A DNA stretch of 53,349 bases from an uncultured archaeon (lineage in GTDB: Archaea > Iainarchaeota > Iainarchaeia > Iainarchaeales > GCA-2688035). The stretch is from NCBI GenBank assembly GCA_964354805.1, contig CAYHBD010000029.1:1-53349 (forward strand), written 5' to 3'. Positions 3,939-25,560 of the stretch are shown one piece after another (position 1 is the stretch's first letter; every line of letters starts with the position of its first letter). The notes below the pieces were generated by a model. The model saw only the letters and a program-made list of their open reading frames with translations. It was not told the origin of the DNA and made no database searches. The translations under genes were made by a program, and so were the position numbers.

Positions 3939-5006
3939 TTATTTCTTCCTCGCTTCCTGCACTATCAGCGCATCAGCCAGCACCATTGCAACCATAGCCT
4001 CAGCCACTGGCACAATCCTTGGGCAGATGCATGGGTCGTGCATCCCCTCAATTTTGATTGTTGCATTTCTTCCTTTTACATCAACTGTTTTCTGGGGCAA
4101 TGCAATTGAAGAAGTTGGCTTTACTGCAATTCGCGCAATAATATCCTGGCCTGTTGAGATTCCGCCCAGAATCCCGCCCGCGTTATTGCTTTTGAACAAA
4201 ATTTTTCCCTTGCTTGAAAACATTTCGTCATTGCATTGCTTGCCAGTCATGCGCGCAACGGAAAAGCCAGCGCCGATTTCAACGCCCTTGACAGCACCAA
4301 TGCCCATCAGGGCTTTTGCAATCTCTGCATCCAGCTTTCCGAAAACAGGCTCACCCAAACCGACTGGAACGCCTGTTGCAATTATTTCAACAATGCCGCC
4401 AACACTATTGCCCTTTGCTTTTGCAGCAAGAATGGCTTTCTCCATCCGCTTTGCTGCAGCACTATCAGGGCATCTGACTGGATTTTTTTCAATCTCTTTT
4501 TCGGAAAAGGATTTTGCTTTAATGCCGGCAATCTCTTTTGAAAAAGCAATTACTTTAATTCCGTTTTTGGCAAGAATTTTTTTTGCGATTGCGCCTGCAG
4601 CAACCCTTGCAACTGTTTCCCTGCCACTGCTTCTCCCACCCCCCCTATAATCGCGAATGCCGAATTTTTTCAGGCAAGTGTAATCGGCCTGCCCCGGCCT
4701 GAATAAATCCTTTATTTTCTCGTACTTGCTTGAGTCCATGCCTTTGTTGAAAACAAGCATGCAGATTGGCGCGCCTGTTGTTTTTCCATCAAAAATTCCG
4801 CTCAAAATCTCTATTTTGTCCTCTTCTTTTCTTGCTGTTGTAACAGCGCTCTGCCCAGGCTTTCTCCTGTCGAGCTCGCGCTGGATTTCTTCTTCGCTTA
4901 TGGGCAAGCCCGGCTTTACACCGTCAATTACAACACCAACAGCCTTGCCATGGCTCTCTCCAAAAGTCATTATCTGGAATGCCTTTCCGAAAACGTTTCC
5001 GCTCAT
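3939..5006 (-). CDS. aroC: Chorismate synthase
   Basis: TFGESHG, RPGQAD, GGGRSSGRET and NNAGGILGGIS motifs; start at MSGNVFG. Confidence 0.97.
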   Translation of the reverse strand: MSGNVFGKAFQIMTFGESHGKAVGVVIDGVKPGLPISEEEIQRELDRRKPGQSAVTTARKEEDKIEILSGIFDGKTTGAPICMLVFNKGMDSSKYEKIKDLFRPGQADYTCLKKFGIRDYRGGGRSSGRETVARVAAGAIAKKILAKNGIKVIAFSKEIAGIKAKSFSEKEIEKNPVRCPDSAAAKRMEKAILAAKAKGNSVGGIVEIIATGVPVGLGEPVFGKLDAEIAKALMGIGAVKGVEIGAGFSVARMTGKQCNDEMFSSKGKILFKSNNAGGILGGISTGQDIIARIAVKPTSSIALPQKTVDVKGRNATIKIEGMHDPCICPRIVPVAEAMVAMVLADALIVQEARKK

Positions 5007-5043
5007 TTTTTTACACCAAATTTTCCTTTTCCGAAAAATCAAT

Positions 5044-5856
5044 TCATTTTGTTAATTCCTTTAACACGATTTCCCTCATTAACTCAATCGGCGCTTCTTT
5101 TCCTGTCCAGAGCCTGAATTGCTCTGCTCCCTGCGCCAAAAACATTTCAATTCCTGCGATTGTTTCGCAGCCTGCTTTTTTTGCTTCCCGCAAAAGCATT
5201 GTTTCAAGCGGGTTGTAAACTATATCAAAAACAAGCAAATCTTTTTTTAATAAGGTTTTTTCAACAGGCATTGCGTTCGCTTTAGGGCTCATGCCGACAG
5301 GGGTTGCATTAATCAGAATGTCAAAATCAAGCGAGTTCAGTTTTTCAAGCTGAGCGCAAGAGCAGCCGATTGCCGCTGCAAGATATTTCGCTTTCAAAAA
5401 ATCAATGTCTGAGATTGTTGTCTGCGCTTTTTCCTGCTGCAATGCAAAGGCAATAGCCCTTCCAGCGCCCCCAGCGCCGAGCAAAGCAACTCGTTTTCCA
5501 TTCAATTCTGTTTTTGCTTTGAGGGCATTGATTGCGGCAGGCGCATCGGTGTTGTATCCGACCAACAGGTTGTTTTCATTCACAACAGTGTTGACTGCCA
5601 TGATTTTTGCCGCAAGCGCATCAGTCCTGTCAAGGTGCTTTATTATTTTTTCCTTGAACGGAATTGTTACGCTATAGCCCCTGAAGTCAAGTTGCCGCAT
5701 TGCATCAACAGCCAGCTTGAGGTTTTTCACATCAAAGGCAAGGTATACATAGTTCAGGTTGAGGGCTTGGAAAGCTGCATTGTGCATTGCAGGGCTCATG
5801 CTGTGGGCAACAGGATGCCCGATCAGGGCAATCAGCCTTGTTTTTGCGTCAATCAT
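5044..5856 (-). CDS. aroE: Shikimate dehydrogenase
   Basis: GHPVAHSMSP, SVTIPFK, AVNT, GYNTD, GAGGAG and NATPVGM motifs. Confidence 0.96.
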   Translation of the reverse strand: MIDAKTRLIALIGHPVAHSMSPAMHNAAFQALNLNYVYLAFDVKNLKLAVDAMRQLDFRGYSVTIPFKEKIIKHLDRTDALAAKIMAVNTVVNENNLLVGYNTDAPAAINALKAKTELNGKRVALLGAGGAGRAIAFALQQEKAQTTISDIDFLKAKYLAAAIGCSCAQLEKLNSLDFDILINATPVGMSPKANAMPVEKTLLKKDLLVFDIVYNPLETMLLREAKKAGCETIAGIEMFLAQGAEQFRLWTGKEAPIELMREIVLKELTK

Positions 5857-5988
5857 TTTTGCTCAGCCCCAACAGCAATGCAATCAACTTTGTTTCAGCA
5901 TCAATCATTTTCCAACACCTTTTTAACTTTTGCAGGAATCATTTGCTCAGCTCCTTTTTCATTTCACCAGTACTTAATTTTGCCCCAA
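5857..5988 (-). repeat. Spacer made of diverged copies of the aroE start and aroD end
   Basis: From 5908 down, minus strand reads MIDAETKLIALLLG (aroE starts MIDAKTRLIALIG). 5939-5962 reads MKKELSK* (aroD ends MRKELSK*). Confidence 0.85.
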
Positions 5989-6651
5989 TCATTTGCTCAG
6001 CTCCTTTCGCATTTTATCAATGGGCAATTGGCCTGCTGCGCTTTCTTTTCCTTTTGCGAGAGAGGCGAATGTCAGCAGCGAGCCCATTTTAATGCACTGT
6101 ACTCTGCTTTTTTTGCCTTTTGGCCCCATGCAAAAGGCAATTATTTGTTTTCCGTATTTTTTTGCCACGGGAATTAATGCAAGGATTGTGTCATTGTCCT
6201 GCTCTGAGTTTGCAAAAGTGACAATCTTCACCACATGGCAGGGCAGGGAAAGCATTGCGCTCAGGGTTTGAATCAGTTCCGGCAGCGGGGGGGTTGCCTC
6301 GAAATCGTGGAAAGAGAGAATTATTCTGGCATTTTTCCTGTTTTTGGAAAACCCCGGCAAAAAGTCCTTGTCCTCGCCAAAATCAATGTCAATGTAGGAA
6401 GCGCCGAGCTCTGCTGCCTTGAAAAGCAAAAAGCGCCTTTCTGTCGGCTCAACAGAAGCCCCGAAGTTTTGCGCCATGAAAGTGACGATAACAGGCTTTT
6501 TGCACTGCTCAAGCAGCTCGGCAAGGATTGTTTCATTGACTTCCTTTAGAAAATCAAGGCGGAGCTCGATTGCATCAGCTTTTTCGTTGGCAATTTTAAT
6601 ATCGGCAATGGCCTGCTCTGCAGTGGCAGCTGTTATCGGAATTGCAATCAT
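5989..6651 (-). CDS. aroD: Type I 3-dehydroquinate dehydratase
   Basis: ADAIELRLD, ILSFHDF, VVKIV, AFCMG..G..SR and SAAGQ motifs. Confidence 0.93.
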   Translation of the reverse strand: MIAIPITAATAEQAIADIKIANEKADAIELRLDFLKEVNETILAELLEQCKKPVIVTFMAQNFGASVEPTERRFLLFKAAELGASYIDIDFGEDKDFLPGFSKNRKNARIILSFHDFEATPPLPELIQTLSAMLSLPCHVVKIVTFANSEQDNDTILALIPVAKKYGKQIIAFCMGPKGKKSRVQCIKMGSLLTFASLAKGKESAAGQLPIDKMRKELSK

Positions 6652-7169
6652 TGCAGCTCACTTAAAATTTTTTTAACTATTTTAGGCACTGTTGAATTGG
6701 TGCAGTCAATTATTATGTCGGCGGATTTTTCATAAATTAGCTCGCGCCTTGCAAGCTCTTTTTTCATTGAGCCCTCCAAATCGTTCTGGTCGAGGAAGGC
6801 CGGAACACCGGTCTTTTTTATTCTAACAAGCAATCTTTCAGGAGAATCGCGCAGGTAAATAAGCGTGCAGCAGCTTTTCAGCAAATCAACGCTGGCTGAA
6901 TAGGCAACTGTTCCTCCGCCAAGCGCAATTACGCAATCCTTTTTTTCAGGCAGCTGCTCAACCGCCCTTGCTTCAAGAGAGCGAAAGTAGTCTGCCCCAT
7001 ACTTTTTGTGGATTTCCCTGAAACCAAGCTTTTCCCCACTTCCATTTTCATGCAGTGCAGTAATCAAATCATCCAGTTCAACGAATTCCTTTTTCATTTT
7101 TTTGGCCAAAGCCTTTGCAACGCTGCTTTTTCCGCAGCACTTGAAGCCCATTATTGCAATGTTTTTCAT
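6648..7169 (-). CDS. aroK: Shikimate kinase, bacterial-type P-loop family
   Basis: GFKCCGKS Walker A, G..YFR.LE and VIALGGG motifs. Confidence 0.92.
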   Translation of the reverse strand: MKNIAIMGFKCCGKSSVAKALAKKMKKEFVELDDLITALHENGSGEKLGFREIHKKYGADYFRSLEARAVEQLPEKKDCVIALGGGTVAYSASVDLLKSCCTLIYLRDSPERLLVRIKKTGVPAFLDQNDLEGSMKKELARRELIYEKSADIIIDCTNSTVPKIVKKILSELQ

Positions 7170-8440
7170 TTTAACATCTCCATTTTTGCGCCAATCTTCC
7201 GCATATCGACAGCAAAGGAGGGATATGTTTTGTTCATGCCCTCGGCAGTGGAAATTTTTGTAATGCCATCCGCGTTCAGGCCGGCAATTGCAAGGGCCAT
7301 TATTGTCCTGTGGTCATTGTAGCCGTTTACATCAGCGCCATGCAGAGTGCTCTTTCTCACAATCAGGCCATTGGGCAATTCCTCAATATCAGCGCCCATT
7401 TTCCGCAGCTCTGCTGCCATTGCCCTTATCCTGTCTGTTTCCTTTATCCTCGCCTGCGCTACATTAACCAGGCGCGTTTCTCCGGAAGCAAAACAGCCTG
7501 CAACAGCAAGGGCCGGCAGGGCATCAGGGGTTGCATTCAAATCAAGCTCTTTTCCGGTTAGTTCGCTGCTGTTCACCAGAATGCCTTCTTTCTTTACAAT
7601 AATGTCTGCGCCCATTCTCTTGAGCATGTTCAAAACATCTTTGTCTCCCTGCAAATCATTCAGGTCAAGGCCCTTTAAAAGAACGCTTGAGCTGCCGGTT
7701 ATTGCTGCGGCGCATAAGGGGAAGCAGGCGCTTGACCAGTCGGCGGGAATTGCTTTCTCAAAAGAATTGAATTGCTGATTTCCTTCAATATTGAATTTTT
7801 CGAAATTTGAATTTGCCTTGCATTTCACCCCAAGCCCGCGCATCCAGTGCATTGTCATTTCAATGTAAGGGGTTTCACTTGGGGCAATAACATGCATCTC
7901 AGTATCCTGCTCTGCTATTGCCGCGCTGAGCAGCAGGCTTGAAACAGGCTGTGAGCTCAATCCATCAATCCCAGTGCTGCCGCCTTTAATGAAACCGCTG
8001 ATTTTCAAGGGCGGCTTTCCCCTGTTTTGAAAAGATTCGGCTTTTCCGCCCAAATCATTTATGCCCTTGCAGATTGGCTCAAAAGGCCTTGCTCTCAGTG
8101 ATTCTCCGCCGGTGATAATGATTGGGCCTTTTGCATGACCTGCAATGCCTGCAAGAAAATTTGTGCTGATGCCGCTGTTTGCCAGATCAACCTCTTTTGC
8201 AGGGGTTTTTGGCTTGCCTGCAAAGCCCTTTATTTCACAGTAGCCCTTTTCCTTTACCGATGCTCCGAATGCCCTGCAGCCTGCAAGGCAGGCGCTTGAA
8301 TCATCCGATTGCAATGGCAAAAGAATTTTCGAAATACCGCTTGCAAGCGATGCAATGACAAAAGCCCTGATTGTATGGCTCTTTGAACCGGGAATCTGAA
8401 TGGCACCTTGCAGAGAAGAGCGCTTTATAACTAACTGCAT
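7166..8440 (-). CDS. aroA: EPSP synthase
   Basis: PGSKSHTIR, SLRARP, SSQ, RIKETDRI and DHRTIMA motifs; start MQLVIK after GGGTGA. Confidence 0.96.
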   Translation of the reverse strand: MQLVIKRSSLQGAIQIPGSKSHTIRAFVIASLASGISKILLPLQSDDSSACLAGCRAFGASVKEKGYCEIKGFAGKPKTPAKEVDLANSGISTNFLAGIAGHAKGPIIITGGESLRARPFEPICKGINDLGGKAESFQNRGKPPLKISGFIKGGSTGIDGLSSQPVSSLLLSAAIAEQDTEMHVIAPSETPYIEMTMHWMRGLGVKCKANSNFEKFNIEGNQQFNSFEKAIPADWSSACFPLCAAAITGSSSVLLKGLDLNDLQGDKDVLNMLKRMGADIIVKKEGILVNSSELTGKELDLNATPDALPALAVAGCFASGETRLVNVAQARIKETDRIRAMAAELRKMGADIEELPNGLIVRKSTLHGADVNGYNDHRTIMALAIAGLNADGITKISTAEGMNKTYPSFAVDMRKIGAKMEMLK

Positions 8441-8483
8441 TTTGCATTTCACCCAAAAGCATTTACATCCGCATTACATTTGC

Positions 8484-9563
8484 TTACCAGCTTACCGACA
8501 CTTCTTCTGGATAGCTGCCCAAGATTTTTACGAAAAGGCACTGTTTTTCCAGCTCGGCAAGGGCTGCCTTCACCTGGACATCTTCCCTAAAGCCCTCGAA
8601 GTCAACGAAGAAAACCACTTCCCACAATTTTTTCTTTGCAGGCCTTGACTCAATCTTTGTCATGCTGATGTTGTGTTCGGCAAAGGCTTTCAGCGCATTG
8701 AACAAGGTGCCTGCCTTGTGCTGGACGCTGAACATTATGCTTGTCTTGTCCTTTCCTGTTGCGCTGTTCTGCTCTTTTCCTATCACAAGGAAGCGCGTTA
8801 CATTATAAGGCGAGTCCTCAATGCTTCTTGCAACAATATTCAGGCTGAATTCTGGCGCAGCCATCTCTGATGCAATGGCAGCGCTGTTTTTTGTTTTTGA
8901 TGCCTGCTCTGCCGCCTTTGCAGTGCTGCTTGCCTCAACCAATTCGGCTTTAGGCAGATTTTTCGCCAGCCATTTTCTGCACTGGGCAAAAGCCTGCGGG
9001 TGGGAGTAAACTGTTTTAATTTCTGAAAGGGAATTTTTTGATAGAAGGCAGTGCTTTATGTCAAGCATTATTTCTGCTGCAATGTTCAGGCTGCTGTCAA
9101 GGAACATGTCCAGGGTGTGGCTTACTGTTCCCTCAATGCTGTTCTCTACTGGAACAACACCGTAATCTGCTTCCTGTTTTTCAACCGAATTGAATACATC
9201 CGAAATGCTGGCATAATCAATCAGCTTTGCGCTTGAGCCGAATTTTTTTAGCGCGGCAGCATGCGTGAAAGTTGTTTTCGGGCCGAGGAATGCTACAGCC
9301 AAGGGCTTTTCAGCAGCCCTGCTCATTGCAATAATCTCCGAGAAAACGCTTTTCACTGATTCTGCTGGAACAGCACCCTTTTTTTTAAGCAGGGCGCGCA
9401 GTATCTCTGCTTCCCTTGAGGGAACGAAAACAGGCTCTCCCTTGCCAGCCTTTTCCTTTCCTGCTTCTTTTGCAAGCTGCAATCTTTCCTGCAGCAAAGA
9501 AAGGATTTTTTCATCAACAACATCAATTTTTTTCCGCGTTTCCTGCAAACCCATAAAATTCAT
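8484..9563 (-). CDS. pheA: Bifunctional chorismate mutase / prephenate dehydratase
   Basis: N-terminal AroQ domain (RKKID..D...REAEIL), GVVPVENS, SHPQAFAQC, NVTRF and ACT-domain KIESRP. Confidence 0.96.
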   Translation of the reverse strand: MNFMGLQETRKKIDVVDEKILSLLQERLQLAKEAGKEKAGKGEPVFVPSREAEILRALLKKKGAVPAESVKSVFSEIIAMSRAAEKPLAVAFLGPKTTFTHAAALKKFGSSAKLIDYASISDVFNSVEKQEADYGVVPVENSIEGTVSHTLDMFLDSSLNIAAEIMLDIKHCLLSKNSLSEIKTVYSHPQAFAQCRKWLAKNLPKAELVEASSTAKAAEQASKTKNSAAIASEMAAPEFSLNIVARSIEDSPYNVTRFLVIGKEQNSATGKDKTSIMFSVQHKAGTLFNALKAFAEHNISMTKIESRPAKKKLWEVVFFVDFEGFREDVQVKAALAELEKQCLFVKILGSYPEEVSVSW

Positions 9564-10564
9564 TTCTCCGTGATTTTTTCCTTTACTTTCATTCCAAAGT
9601 GCCTTCCTGCTTCTTCCACAAAGCCGAGCACTGCATCGCCTTTTTTCAGCTGCACTACTGAAACAGGGCTTCCATCCTGCTTGACCAAGCGAATTGTTTC
9701 AGCATTCTGCAGAACAAGCGAAACGCTTGAACCATTGCTGCTGCCTTCAACCAGAATCAATGGCCTTCTCTCAACCTTTGCCCTGCCGATCACTGCCTGT
9801 TCTGTATTGCCTTTTGAGTCAACAATCAAAACACTGTCGCCAGCTTTCAGTTCACTCAAATAATTTGTTTTTCCATCCAAATTCCTGATGTAAGCGTGAA
9901 CCGCGCCTGCATTCACCCTGAATGGCCTTGGCTCAACGTAAGGATTTTCAATGCTCTCGCTGTGGACAAGGAAAAACCCCGAGCTGCTGTTCCCTATAAG
10001 CATTCCCTGGCCCAAGCACATGTTGGTGCAGGTGTCAATGCAAACCCTGTCACCGCTGCTCAGCTGCTTTATGCTAGTGATTTCAATTTTTGCAAGCTGC
10101 AGCTTTTCGCTTTTGCCCTTTACCTCTTTTGCAGTGTCAATTATCTGCTGCACGTCTGTTGAATTGAGCAAAACTCCAGAAACACCCTTTTCCAAAACAC
10201 CCAAAGCTGTTTTTGCTTCGGCTGAATTGCTTACCTCTGCAATAATGCTGTCTGCCTGGGCAACAAGGTTCTCCAGCGGGATAATGCTCCAGTCACTTGT
10301 TTTCACAATGACTGTTTTTTTTCTTGCCAGCTTTGCCGCCCGCAATTCATCTTCCTTGCTGTTTATCTCCACTTCCATGACATCTCTTCCCAGGCGCATG
10401 GCATCGCTGTCCTCTGCAATAGTTGCAATAACTCCCAATTCCCTTATTTTTGCAGAAAGGCCTTTTGGCGCAACTATGGCGTCAGCTCCCTGCTCCAATG
10501 CGGTTGTAACAACCTTCTTGTTCCACTCGTTCAGCCTTACCCAGAATTTCTTCAATTTCAGCAC
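9560..10564 (-). CDS. aroB': 3-dehydroquinate synthase II (archaeal alternative pathway, MJ1249 family)
   Basis: WSIIPLENLVA, GDRVCIDTC, RPFRVNAGAVHAY, LQNAETIRL and GRHFG motifs. Confidence 0.95.
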   Translation of the reverse strand: MLKLKKFWVRLNEWNKKVVTTALEQGADAIVAPKGLSAKIRELGVIATIAEDSDAMRLGRDVMEVEINSKEDELRAAKLARKKTVIVKTSDWSIIPLENLVAQADSIIAEVSNSAEAKTALGVLEKGVSGVLLNSTDVQQIIDTAKEVKGKSEKLQLAKIEITSIKQLSSGDRVCIDTCTNMCLGQGMLIGNSSSGFFLVHSESIENPYVEPRPFRVNAGAVHAYIRNLDGKTNYLSELKAGDSVLIVDSKGNTEQAVIGRAKVERRPLILVEGSSNGSSVSLVLQNAETIRLVKQDGSPVSVVQLKKGDAVLGFVEEAGRHFGMKVKEKITEK

Positions 10565-10635
10565 CTTTTAATGAATTGATAGCAATTTAGTTATTTTAAC
10601 CATTTTGCTTTTCGCAATGCAAAGCCAATATTTGC

Positions 10636-10728
10636 TTATTTCAGCTCTTTTGCTGCCACAGGCGCATTTTTATTTATTTCAGCTCTTTGCTGCCCCCTGC
10701 ACTTGCTTATTTCAATTCTTTTGCCGCC
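10636..10728 (-). repeat. Three copies of the aroA' 3' end (AAKELK*)
   Basis: ttatttcagctcttttgctgcc (10636-10657), ttatttcagctctttgctgcc (10674-10694) and the genuine ttatttcaattcttttgccgcc (10707-10728). Confidence 0.85.
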
Positions 10729-11495
10729 TTTTCAGCGCTCTCTCCCTCGTGGACAACCTTGCACACTGCTCTTACGAAAGCCGCCGGGTTTTTGTGCTGG
10801 AAGCTGTTCCTGCCCATTGCAACTCCGCTGCCGCCGGCTTGAAGGCTTTCCTCAATCTTTTTGAGGCAATCCAATTCATTGCCTTTGCTTCCGCCTGCAA
10901 TAATCACAGGAACAGGGCAGCCTTTTACAACCTGCCTAAAGCTGTCAATACTGCCGGTGTAGTTTGTTTTGACAATGTCTGCGCCAAGTTCTGCTCCAAC
11001 GCGGGCAGCAAGCTTTACTGCTCCAACATCCTTGTCGTCCTTTACATTGGGGCCGCGGGGATACATCATGGCAAGCAGTGGAACGCCCCACTCATTGCAT
11101 GCTTTTGCTGTTTCACCCAAATCAGCCAGCATTTCTGCCTCTGTTACCGCCCCTATGTTGATGTGAACTGAAACAGCATCTGCACCGAGCTTTAGAGCTT
11201 CCTCTACAGTGCAGACATTTATTTTCCTGTTGGGATCCGGGCCAGCGCTTGTTGAAGCGTTTAAGTGCACTATCAGGCCAATGTCTCTGCCGCTTCCCCT
11301 GTGCCCGCTTGTTACAATGCCCTTGTGCAAAACAATTGCGTTTGCCCCTCCTTCTGCAACCTTTTCAATTGTTGAGGATATGCCCTCAAGGCCCAGTATT
11401 GGGCCATCTGTTATTCCGTGGTCCATTGGGATTATCACTGTTCTGCCGCTCTTTCTGTCCATAATCCTTTCCATCCTGATTTTCTTTCCAATCAT
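10707..11495 (-). CDS. aroA': 2-amino-3,7-dideoxy-D-threo-hept-6-ulosonate (ADH) synthase (DhnA-type aldolase, MJ0400 family)
   Basis: [24 protein letters not shown] and GVAMGRN motifs; adjacent to DHQ synthase II; RBS GGAGGTGA before MIGKK. Confidence 0.93.
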
Positions 11496-11496
11496 T

Positions 11497-11680
11497 TCAT
11501 TCACCTCCAATTTTTTCCTCCAAATTTTTTCTCTTTTTTCCCCCAAATTTTTTGTTTCGATTTTTGATTTTCTTTTTTCCTGCGAGTTTTTGTTTTTTCT
11601 TTTTTTCCCAAAAATTTTTTTCTTTTTTTTTCCTCCGAATTTTTTTTTGTTTTATATTTATGTGTCTCCTTTTTTGTGCC
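11497..11680 (-). repeat. A-rich spacer with about 5-6 degenerate AAAAAATT(T)GGAGG units between the leader and aroA'
   Basis: Sense strand: ...aaaaaaattcggaggaaaaaa...aaaaaatttgggggaaaaaa...aaaaaatttggaggaaaaaattggaggtga. Confidence 0.6.
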
Positions 11681-11725
11681 AGGCCCAAAAACTAAAAATA
11701 AACCCTTTTTTTAGCTTAGGGCCTA
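11681..11725 (-). promoter_or_regulatory. Hairpin beginning in the stop codon of the aromatic leader peptide; U-rich 3' arm
   Basis: Sense AGGCCCUAAGCUAAAAA pairs with UUUUUAGUUUUUGGGCCU, about 16 bp with one internal loop. Confidence 0.7.
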
Positions 11726-11818
11726 CTTAAAATAGAAAAACCAATATCCGAAAAATCCGCTGCTGGCTCGCAAAAAATCGCTTGAAAAGAAGTTACAGTA
11801 TGCATTTGCGAGCTTCAT
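11723..11818 (-). CDS. Putative aromatic-operon leader peptide (31 aa; 8 Phe, 3 Tyr, 1 Trp)
   Basis: MKLANAYCNFFSSDFLRASSGFFGYWFFYFK*. 8 of the last 10 residues are aromatic. Same strand as and directly upstream of the aro/phe operon. Confidence 0.85.
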   Translation of the reverse strand: MKLANAYCNFFSSDFLRASSGFFGYWFFYFK

Positions 11819-11843
11819 ATTGACAATAATTATGGGCTGACGA

Positions 11844-11853
11844 TTTTTAAAAA
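11844..11853 (-). promoter_or_regulatory. TATA box for the aro leader/operon
   Basis: TTTTTAAAAA preceded by purine-rich AAAAAGCAAGG, about 25 nt upstream of the leader ATG (leaderless-mRNA spacing). Confidence 0.6.
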
Positions 11854-11916
11854 CCTTGCTTTTTGGCAACAAAAAGGAATATTAAGCACCTTGGGGTTAA
11901 TTTTAAGCGAGAAACA

Positions 11917-12135
11917 ATGGCAATGAGGAAAAGGTATTCTGTAAGGAAAGGGCGCAGCGGGCATGAGTATGCCCTGGGCGATGTAAGGGAGCCAGGGAAC
12001 CCCAACTGGAGGCCTGAAAGAAGGGCACTGAGAGGGGCCGTGCACAAATCTGTTGAAAGCGGACATGTGGCAGTTGGGCACGCAAGAGACCTCTACCTTG
12101 GGCAAAGGGCAAAAAAAGGCGATAGAAGGCAATAG
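11917..12135 (+). CDS. Small Arg-rich hypothetical protein
   Basis: MAMRKRYSVRKGRSG...QRAKKGDRRQ; first ATG of track ORF 11863-12135. Confidence 0.55.
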   Translation: MAMRKRYSVRKGRSGHEYALGDVREPGNPNWRPERRALRGAVHKSVESGHVAVGHARDLYLGQRAKKGDRRQ

Positions 12136-12197
12136 CTACTAAAGTTCAAGCCGGTTGACGCGCTGAGATACGAGTAAAAAGGTTGGTTTTGGCTCGG

Positions 12198-13223
12198 CTA
12201 TTCCGGCAGCCTTGTCTTTCCAGTGTTTACAATCAGCATTTTTTTGTCTTTGGGAAGCTTTTCCTTCATTTGCAGCATGAGGGCAAGGCCAGCAATTCCT
12301 GATGCTTCACAATTTATTCCCTGCGATTCAGCAATTTCAACTGCCCTGTCCAGATAGCTTTCCCTCACAATGTGGACATTGGAGCCGGGGCCGCAGAACC
12401 CGGCTGACCTGTAAAGCCTGATCCACTGCTCATCGTAATGCACAAAGGGCAGGTGCGGTGAATAGAGCTTGTCTGCATTGCTTTTTGGGTTGTTTGTTGT
12501 TGCCCCAAGAAAATTGCATTTTCTCAGGGTTTCAACATTGCCCTTAAAGCGCGGGTCATGGTTCTCTGTTGAAACCTCTTTTTTGTTTATGTTCAGTATG
12601 TTTTCATAAAGATTGCCTGTTCCAAAAGGGATGAAACAATACTCCGGAGAGCTGTTTATTATCTCATAGCTCATCCAATCAAAAAACCTTGTTGTTGGGT
12701 CAAGAGCCTGGTTTGAGGTTATATCAAGGCCGTTTGGGTTCTCTGTAAGCAACAGTATTTCCTTCCACTCAAACGGCTTCTTGCTCAAATTTGTTTCGAA
12801 TATTTCACATCGCAGCTTCTTCATTGCATCCAGAATTTTGGGGTCAATGCTGAAATCAACCAAAACCTTCAAACCAGGCAAATGGTATTTTCTGAACATG
12901 GTTTGGATTGCAATCGCAGCAGAACCGGAAGAAATTATGGACATCTGGGGCAGCTGGCCTTTGAGCTGGCCATTCTTCTTTGCAAGCAAAAAGTCCCTGT
13001 AGGTAACAACCATTTCCCATGCCATTCTGTCCTTGTGCGTTCCAGTTGGATTAACGCTTTCATCCTTCAGCCAGACATTGGAAAAGCCTGGAACCTTAAT
13101 CTGGGAAGTTGGTGTTGCAGGAAATTTTGGATTGTCGGGGGGAAACTCCGGCCTTTTCGGATCGTTCTCAGAAGCGACAACAATCGAACGCAGTATCTTC
13201 TCTTCTTTACCTGACAAGGCCAT
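12198..13223 (-). CDS. PLP-dependent enzyme, fold type II (threonine synthase/TrpB superfamily), function unknown
   Basis: VWLKDESVNPTGTHKDR (PLP Lys), ISSGSAA, IPFGTGNL, CEASGIAGLA and LIVNTG motifs. Confidence 0.85.
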   Translation of the reverse strand: MALSGKEEKILRSIVVASENDPKRPEFPPDNPKFPATPTSQIKVPGFSNVWLKDESVNPTGTHKDRMAWEMVVTYRDFLLAKKNGQLKGQLPQMSIISSGSAAIAIQTMFRKYHLPGLKVLVDFSIDPKILDAMKKLRCEIFETNLSKKPFEWKEILLLTENPNGLDITSNQALDPTTRFFDWMSYEIINSSPEYCFIPFGTGNLYENILNINKKEVSTENHDPRFKGNVETLRKCNFLGATTNNPKSNADKLYSPHLPFVHYDEQWIRLYRSAGFCGPGSNVHIVRESYLDRAVEIAESQGINCEASGIAGLALMLQMKEKLPKDKKMLIVNTGKTRLPE

Positions 13224-25479: not shown

Positions 25480-25560
25480 TTATCCCAGCAGCAATAGAAC
25501 CAGGACAAGCAAGGCTAAAAGAATCAAGGAATTTTTTGCCAAAAAACTTGCTTTGCTCAT
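25480..25560 (-). CDS. Putative leu/ilv operon leader peptide (26 aa; 11 Leu, 2 Val, 1 Ile)
   Basis: MSKASFLAKNSLILLALLVLVLLLLG*. 13 of the last 15 residues are L/I/V. Directly upstream of leuA on the same strand. Confidence 0.8.
   Translation of the reverse strand: MSKASFLAKNSLILLALLVLVLLLLG

Follow-up and report, generated by a model that had tools for sequence, protein, structure and literature searches.

The closest described counterparts of the arrangement reported here are the enterobacterial attenuators pheL-pheA, pheM-pheST and trpL, in which a short ORF containing codons for the end product lies directly upstream of the biosynthetic operon and RNA structure beside the stop codon lends itself to readout by the position of the ribosome. 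In pheL the Phe cluster extends to the second-last codon. Enterobacterial attenuators switch between alternative 1:2, 2:3 and 3:4 pairings. In mycobacteria, polycysteine leaderless short ORFs have been described (Canestrari et al., bioRxiv 10.1101/834739); each is a leaderless sensory ORF forming the first cistron of an amino-acid operon, together they constitute a ribosome-read regulon, and a stalled ribosome uncovers the next gene's ribosome-binding site. For archaea, a passage in PMC8448881 names promoter recruitment as the only known target of transcription regulation, and direct evidence for functional transcription-translation coupling is scarce (PMC13681488). According to passages in PMC13675443, the KH domains of the archaeal termination factor aCPSF1 bind terminator U-tracts (citing PMC8716108) and the factor acts downstream of these tracts (citing PMC8716108 and PMC7515710). 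FttA is thought to act on ribosome-free RNA (PMC8716108 and PMC7103508, as related in passages of PMC13675443 and PMC13681488). The known cases of aCPSF1/FttA action are constitutive gene-end terminators and polarity. In the full-text literature searched we found neither an archaeal leader-peptide attenuator nor a ribosome-gated, amino-acid-specific use of aCPSF1/FttA upstream of an operon.

The window, that is the whole stretch of DNA analysed, comprises 53,349 nt and is contig 29 of a genome of 1.38 Mb (88.5% complete) from an uncultured Iainarchaeota-type DPANN archaeon. Its minus strand carries an aro operon of the order aroA'-aroB'-pheA-aroA-aroK-aroD-aroE-aroC, starting at 11495, which encodes ADH synthase (ADHS), DHQ synthase II, chorismate mutase-prephenate dehydratase, EPSP synthase, shikimate kinase, dehydroquinase, shikimate dehydrogenase and chorismate synthase. 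The closest public operon is labelled Candidatus Iainarchaeum (81% ADHS identity). An earlier note on this DNA had described a Phe/Tyr/Trp-rich leader peptide upstream of the operon. Every item it listed is present in the sequence as given there: the ORF yields the 31-residue peptide with 12 aromatic residues, and a conserved, aromatic-rich and translated-looking ORF indeed lies ahead of aroA'...aroC (Table 1). On balance, we favour the interpretation that this leader, at the head of the aro operon, is a sensor of aromatic aminoacyl-tRNA supply which acts in cis, is read by the ribosome and works by gating termination. That it is a ribosome-read sensor by any cis mechanism, we regard as likely. 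Leader-peptide control by ribosome sensing of amino-acid shortage, so far established only in bacteria, most likely applies here.

Table 1. Features of the leader region and the aro operon (positions in the window).
Feature	Coordinates	Strand	Remarks
Putative promoter P1, purine-rich BRE-like bases and TATA-like box T5A5 (11853-11844)	11844..11859	(-)	Promoter function presumed
Leader ORF P0001	11723..11818	(-)	31 codons and UAG (96 nt); 12 aromatic codons
5' domain closed by 9-bp stem 11813-11805 / 11774-11766	11766..11813	(-)	Starts 5 nt after the 5' AUG
C-terminal cluster Y-W-F-F-Y-F, then one non-aromatic codon and stop	11729..11746	(-)	Presumed regulatory
Stop-codon hairpin, basal 7 bp, 1-nt bulge, upper 10 bp	11680..11725	(-)	Starts at the U of UAG
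Oligo-U signal U3-A-U5-AG-U5	11687..11702	(-)	Inside hairpin; adjoins the G/C clamp of the 3' arm on its 5' side
Post-hairpin block ending in TATA-like heptamer (11656-11650)	11650..11679	(-)	Conserved; possible second promoter or RNA element
A-rich purine spacer with repeated Shine-Dalgarno-like motifs	11509..11649	(-)	A content 0.62
aroA' Shine-Dalgarno, 8 bases	11501..11508	(-)	5 nt before the ATG at 11495
aro operon, eight genes	3939..11495	(-)	All eight products match a named Pfam family above cut-off

Aromatic residues (Phe, Tyr or Trp) occupy 12 of the 31 positions of the leader peptide and six of the final eight. Hence, as in the enterobacterial attenuators, a short upstream ORF is enriched in codons for the end products, and as in pheL the cluster runs to the second-last codon. 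The ORF frame contains 12 aromatic codons, compared with 4 and 6 in the other two frames. This number was reached in 1 of 20,000 dinucleotide-preserving shuffles and in none of 20,000 while the frame stayed open, and the binomial P of the composition, measured against the proteome (9.2% aromatic), is 1e-5. The genome contains 10,907 ATG-ORFs of 12-60 codons, of which the leader is the sole one with six aromatic residues in its terminal eight. Mere T-richness of the strand, which had been named beforehand as the circumstance that could explain the aromatic codons away, is excluded by the shuffles, the ORF ranking and the conservation of the frame in relatives. Such leader mini-genes are missing from gene calls, which is of relevance for annotation.

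The TATA-like box has its first base 35 nt and its last base 25 nt from the leader ATG. In four family members its first 8 bases are identical, and the first base lies 31-35 nt from the ATG. TATA-like motifs peak genome-wide at 26-35 nt upstream of start codons; consequently, leaderless mRNAs are common in this genome. The predicted TATA-to-ATG distance of 31-35 nt falls within this leaderless peak, as would be expected for a leaderless first cistron of the mycobacterial Cys type. Judged by this spacing, the leader mRNA is very probably leaderless, in agreement with the gap of about 25 nt and the leaderless transcript proposed before. Divergent from the leader lies a G+C-rich (53%) stretch (11863-12135, plus strand) with a 90-codon ORF for a basic protein, for which a Pfam search gave no match; a 73%-identical counterpart is located about 800 nt upstream of the leader in the related genome G001. 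A structured RNA in this stretch was considered and rejected (no tRNA, no Rfam family, z = +0.7).

An ADHS-type aro operon is present in 3 of 22 other genomes of the window's family (G001, G009 and G012), and the leader precedes it in all three. The four leader ORFs measure 96, 90, 90 and 135 nt and differ by multiples of 3, their stop codons are TAG, TGA, TAA and TAG, and TTT and TTC are exchanged synonymously. The C-terminus W-[F/Y]-F-(F)-Y-F, followed by one variable residue and the stop, is found in 4/4 members. That the frame is kept while the stops vary and the Phe codons are exchanged synonymously points to selection for translation in this frame and for the identity of its codons rather than for the nucleotide sequence. 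When 215 genomes of the phylum were searched at the protein level, the operon was located also in a sister family (f11), where an analogous leader was found at 11/11 loci (L236-L246). These leaders have a TATA box about 31 nt upstream, 21-31 codons, and an F/Y/W cluster with one Glu codon at the end. The common layout of TATA box, leaderless ORF, terminal aromatic cluster plus one other codon, and hairpin at the stop codon therefore heads 15/15 assessable ADHS-type aro operons (4/4 in the window's family, 11/11 in f11), a count that leaves aside G026, whose ADHS gene sits within an operon running off the contig. Thus the synteny upstream of aroA', which the earlier note had named as a check, holds: in all assessable relatives the leader stands in frame upstream of the operon. 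A covariance model of the 3' module, run on 151 genomes of the order, returned only the known members and two false matches; the latter, both in G015, are antisense to coding DNA. A DNA-pattern scan for the leader motif in metagenome contigs gave at least 120 matches; among the matches listed all are chance, and none of them has a hairpin. In f11, a T-run with GTTAGAG/GTTAGTG before the leader TATA box recurs in degenerate form after the hairpin in about half of the loci.

The aromatic leader is not the only one in this genome. A Leu/Val-rich leader, a 26-codon leaderless ORF at 25560..25480 (-) that ends in a run of Leu/Val codons, precedes, together with a purine-rich spacer, a leuA-ilvB-ilvC-ilvD-leuCDB operon. 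Its 7-bp hairpin (25477-25471 / 25448-25442) begins 2 nt past the stop codon, and U4 adjoins the 3' arm. G012 and G009 share this layout, which matches that of the aromatic leader. A third, Trp-rich ORF (G000 contig C2:29628-29732 (+), locus L225) ends W-F-W-W-W-Q-K-P and lies upstream of tRNA-Trp(CCA) (L225 492-564) and trpE (from L225 667). A weaker homolog in G009 contains two Trp codons. In G001 and G012 long hairpin-rich inserts are present in the tRNA-Trp gene, and a Trp-rich ORF was not seen within the sequence examined. With three mini-genes in one genome, each matched to its operon, an explanation other than sensors is hard to find. Like the mycobacterial ORFs, the aro, the leu/ilv and probably the trp leaders would form a ribosome-read regulon. 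Aromatic-tailed ORFs are also located ahead of aroA' or tkt-aroA' in Methanoculleus, Methanolinea and Methanospirillum and in two further archaeal genomes of small size (L019, L020); upstream of bacterial aroA' such an ORF was found at about 1/42 loci. Leaders of this type may also be useful as flags for those reduced DPANN genomes which still regulate amino-acid synthesis.

Two structured elements had been proposed for the leader RNA. The first, the 9-bp stem 11766-11774/11805-11813, belongs to the minimum-energy fold of all four family sequences (z -1.0, -2.5, -2.8 and -2.7) and is retained in them with G-U and compensatory changes. In each of the four, the domain it closes extends from nt 3-6 to about nt 55, and a 45-nt insertion in G001 is accommodated inside the loop with the closing stem intact. 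The second, a hairpin starting inside the UAG, likewise exists (7 + 10 pairs) and is kept in the relatives, with -19.4 kcal/mol (z = -2.6) in the host genome and -17.4 to -21.9 kcal/mol (z -1.9 to -2.9) in the three others. The RNAalifold consensus contains 17 pairs, 13 of them within the stop-codon hairpin, and shows compensatory changes at 3 hairpin pairs. In f11 the hairpin has 12 pairs, includes the last sense (Glu) codon and the stop, and is unlike that of the window's family in sequence; 92% of its cells are paired, compared with 19-60% when the partners are slid. Covariation was judged on 4 + 11 sequences, the loci of the closest ADHS relatives (P0002, 95%; P0003, 89%; P0005, P0007 and P0009) being left out.

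The transcript of the host genome contains two U5 runs, and at the matching place the relatives show 6, 7 and 9 consecutive U. In the four sequences the runs end 29-38 nt past the first base of the stop codon. Thus, an oligo-U run of the kind used as a termination signal in archaea is present in each of them, and it presumably acts in termination. The earlier note placed the U-tract within the 3' arm of the hairpin. This is correct for the host genome but not for the three relatives, in which only about 1-3 of the 6-9 U's are paired and the rest lie in the loop; burial of the run is therefore unconserved and was dismissed as a general feature. In f11 the U-run follows the hairpin instead of lying inside it. 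The genome also encodes the factor, since an aCPSF1/FttA ortholog was identified (TIGR03675 match, G000:C47:35937-37820, 855 bits with a cut-off of 580). Oligo-U signal and factor gene are the features shared with archaeal U-tract termination (PMC8716108 and PMC7103508, as related in PMC13675443 and PMC13681488); the proposed use here, amino-acid-specific and upstream of an operon, differs from the known constitutive cases.

In several respects the locus departs from the enterobacterial attenuators. The host is an archaeon and the mRNA would be leaderless, starting from a TATA box. A G+C-rich hairpin directly followed by a U-tail is absent, as the U-run lies between the hairpin arms, and in place of mutually exclusive terminator and antiterminator pairings of segments 1-4 there is a single conserved hairpin after the stop. 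A partner for a 3:4 helix was not seen by eye at the locus, and a candidate 3:4-type helix in f11 was discarded, its pairing being inconsistent by eye over the 11 sequences. The same applies to a mini-hairpin right before the U-run that could have formed a bacterial-style terminator; by eye, it is weak in three sequences and absent in G009. A scan for bacterial-type promoters and terminators gave 0 terminator-like sites in 11400-12300, and an Rfam scan of 11300-12300 gave nothing relevant at E up to 10. Termination would be carried out here by archaeal RNA polymerase and aCPSF1/FttA.

The effect of ribosome position was evaluated by folding with a 30-nt ribosome footprint masked, where the argument on the hairpin is drawn from the rows of the host genome and G001, with G012 and G009 left out. 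With the A site on the Trp codon or two codons later, the stop-codon hairpin is predicted to be intact. With the A site on the last Phe codon the basal stem is opened, and with the stop codon covered the hairpin is lost altogether. Across the ribosome states the unpaired probability of the U-run ranges from 0.41 to 0.59 in the host genome and from 0.38 to 0.55 in G001. Of the idea put forward previously, that a terminating ribosome would melt the stem and thereby expose the U-tract, the first part is reproduced by these folds, but the pairing of the U-run changes little.

We propose the following sequence of events. Transcription would start at or a few bases from the AUG and give a leaderless mRNA, on which the ribosome would read 31 codons, 12 of them for Phe, Tyr or Trp. 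With plenty of these amino acids, it would reach the stop codon in the base of the 17-bp hairpin and hold the 5' arm open. The oligo-U between the arms would then stay linear and exposed, and transcription would end there, via the intrinsic U-tract signal, via U-tract-binding aCPSF1/FttA, or both. In case of a shortage of Phe, Tyr or Trp the ribosome would stall upstream, the hairpin would close around the U-run behind the polymerase, and transcription would run through the purine-rich spacer into aroA'. As aromatic codons are distributed along the entire ORF, what would distinguish plenty from shortage is the arrival of the ribosome at the stop codon, and hence at the hairpin, close behind the polymerase. 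Because this arrival is the robust difference, we favour a gate in which the hairpin is kept open by arrival and closes on stalling. The termination-gating mechanism itself is plausible; according to the predicted folds its logic would fit the geometry and give the right regulatory sign. That leader and operon are co-transcribed, that regulation has this sign and that termination takes part in it are our inferences.

Timing places a constraint on this mechanism. As the U-run is transcribed before the 3' arm exists, immediate intrinsic termination at this run is beyond the reach of the hairpin. Consequently, only the slower, factor-dependent step could be gated, and this step leaves time for the 3' arm to emerge because aCPSF1 acts downstream of the U-tract. 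Several points speak against gating. In the three relatives the U-run would lie mostly in the loop, and its predicted unpaired probability hardly shifts. The U-run of f11 follows the hairpin, the conserved TATA-like heptamer after the hairpin complicates the model, and a stall on the last two aromatic codons would, by the masked folds, open the stem base. We advance only tentatively, as something that may well turn out otherwise, the wider proposal of an archaeal ribosome-mediated transcription attenuation of a build unlike the bacterial one, in which a leaderless sensory ORF and a single stop-codon hairpin would gate how the termination machinery (U-tract plus aCPSF1/FttA) reaches the nascent RNA, with a lineage set of aromatic, Leu/Val and Trp leaders, each ahead of its own operon. 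An operon-matched leader with a stop-codon hairpin and a U-run offers an easily mutated test of ribosome-controlled archaeal termination.

The heptamer leads to the alternative that survives best. A TATA-like heptamer is found 25-28 nt after the hairpin in all four sequences, in degenerate form in G001, and in G009 it stands 43 nt before the aroA' start, an ordinary distance for genes of this genome that are led by a Shine-Dalgarno (SD) sequence. Accordingly, the aro operon may have a second promoter of its own after the hairpin, as far as the motif and its spacing can tell. The mini-gene could then be a separate transcription unit which ends at the U-run, with the aro operon transcribed from the post-hairpin element, and the peptide or the short RNA would act otherwise, or the cassette would be what is left of a duplicated promoter. 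T-runs of 6-9, being strong stop signals in archaea, would suit such a unit. In L020 and f11, moreover, the sequence after the leader echoes the region around the leader's own promoter, and this repetition suggests that the cassette arose by, or still carries, a promoter duplication. A separate unit, however, would leave unexplained why end-product codons are packed into the leader in 15/15 operons and why the Leu/Val leader and the Trp ORF stand before matching operons. In addition, TATA-like words arise easily in A-rich sequence, and the spacer resembles the purine-rich spacers that are typical within operons of this genome, e.g. the ribosomal-protein operons on contig C9. Its A content (0.62) is the highest among 88 SD-led genes with long upstream gaps in the genome. 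We consider a separate unit unlikely. The distance from the leader stop to the aroA' start is 227 nt here and ranges from 108 to 227 nt among the four family members, a range that looks like growth by local duplication.

Still somewhat less probable is a gate of opposite polarity on the same sensor. The closed hairpin would then be the OFF state, through termination, processing or a roadblock, and a ribosome stalled on the last aromatic codons would hold it open and turn the operon ON. Stalled ribosomes act in this manner at erm leaders, and likewise in the mycobacterial Cys leaders. The position of the aromatic cluster argues for such a gate, as it sits without exception at the very 3' end of the ORF, one codon short of the stop, while in L019, L020 and the Methanoculleus loci it abuts the stop. 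Furthermore, the basal stem opens in the folds when the footprint covers the last Phe codon, and in f11 the hairpin takes in the last sense codon, with a U-run after it. Aromatic codons, however, occur throughout the ORF, so that starvation would stall the ribosome far upstream with the hairpin still closed. In the window's family, moreover, no U-run comes after the hairpin, and a closed hairpin thus has no obvious terminator to complete.

Translational attenuation of the mycobacterial Cys type, in which the U-rich codon tract would be paired to the purine-rich ribosome-binding site of aroA' until this site is freed by ribosome stalling, is highly improbable. In composition, the U-rich leader and the A/G-rich spacer complement each other, and they do pair in minimum-energy folds. 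Nevertheless, in five sequences masked with footprints on the Trp codon, one codon or two past it, or on the stop, the predicted accessibility of the aroA' SD-AUG region did not change with the position of the leader ribosome in any case. The unpaired probabilities at the ribosome positions were 0.74/0.74/0.73 in the host genome and 0.54/0.53/0.54, 0.77/0.74/0.75 and 0.41/0.38/0.41 elsewhere. Sequestration of the SD sequence is disfavoured, and was rejected, on this independence of ribosome position in the five sequences; the variable leader stop-aroA' distance (108 to 227 nt) also speaks against it. The unmasking of the next ribosome-binding site known from mycobacteria is thus unsupported for the archaeal leader. 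Finally, the strand is T-rich at the leader and Phe codons are T-rich, but a chance ORF within T-rich intergenic DNA is already refuted by the conservation of the leader, with frame and motif kept in 15 operons of two families, as well as by the ORF ranking, the shuffles and the binomial P, and has practically no probability left.

A related arrangement was noticed in methanogens. In Methanoculleus (L050, L063, L071, L081, L086, L088 and L095) and Methanolinea (L070, L072 and L080), an ORF with an aromatic end stops 45-51 nt before aroA'. At the five Methanoculleus loci examined (L050, L063, L071, L081 and L086), a hairpin right after the stop holds the aroA' Shine-Dalgarno sequence in its 3' arm. 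Judged from this arrangement, the Methanoculleus leaders look like a translational version of the same idea. Since species of Methanoculleus are cultured, the idea could be tested at the bench. The Methanoculleus loci also share a strongly conserved 5' segment, which could represent an RNA element in its own right.

The host genome encodes a second ADHS, a paralog with 61% identity, at C10:39178-39960 (-) (locus L013). It has no leader ORF and follows a methyltransferase-like gene after a short gap. An aromatic-tailed small ORF located after this paralog overlaps a Maf-like gene in another frame and was discarded as chance. Most archaea use a GHMP-type shikimate kinase. The shikimate kinase of the present operon (6648-7169 (-)) matches the Pfam SKI family, while the operon as such is of the archaeal type (ADHS / DHQS-II). 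Given this SKI-type kinase in an ADHS / DHQS-II operon, the operon would be a mosaic.
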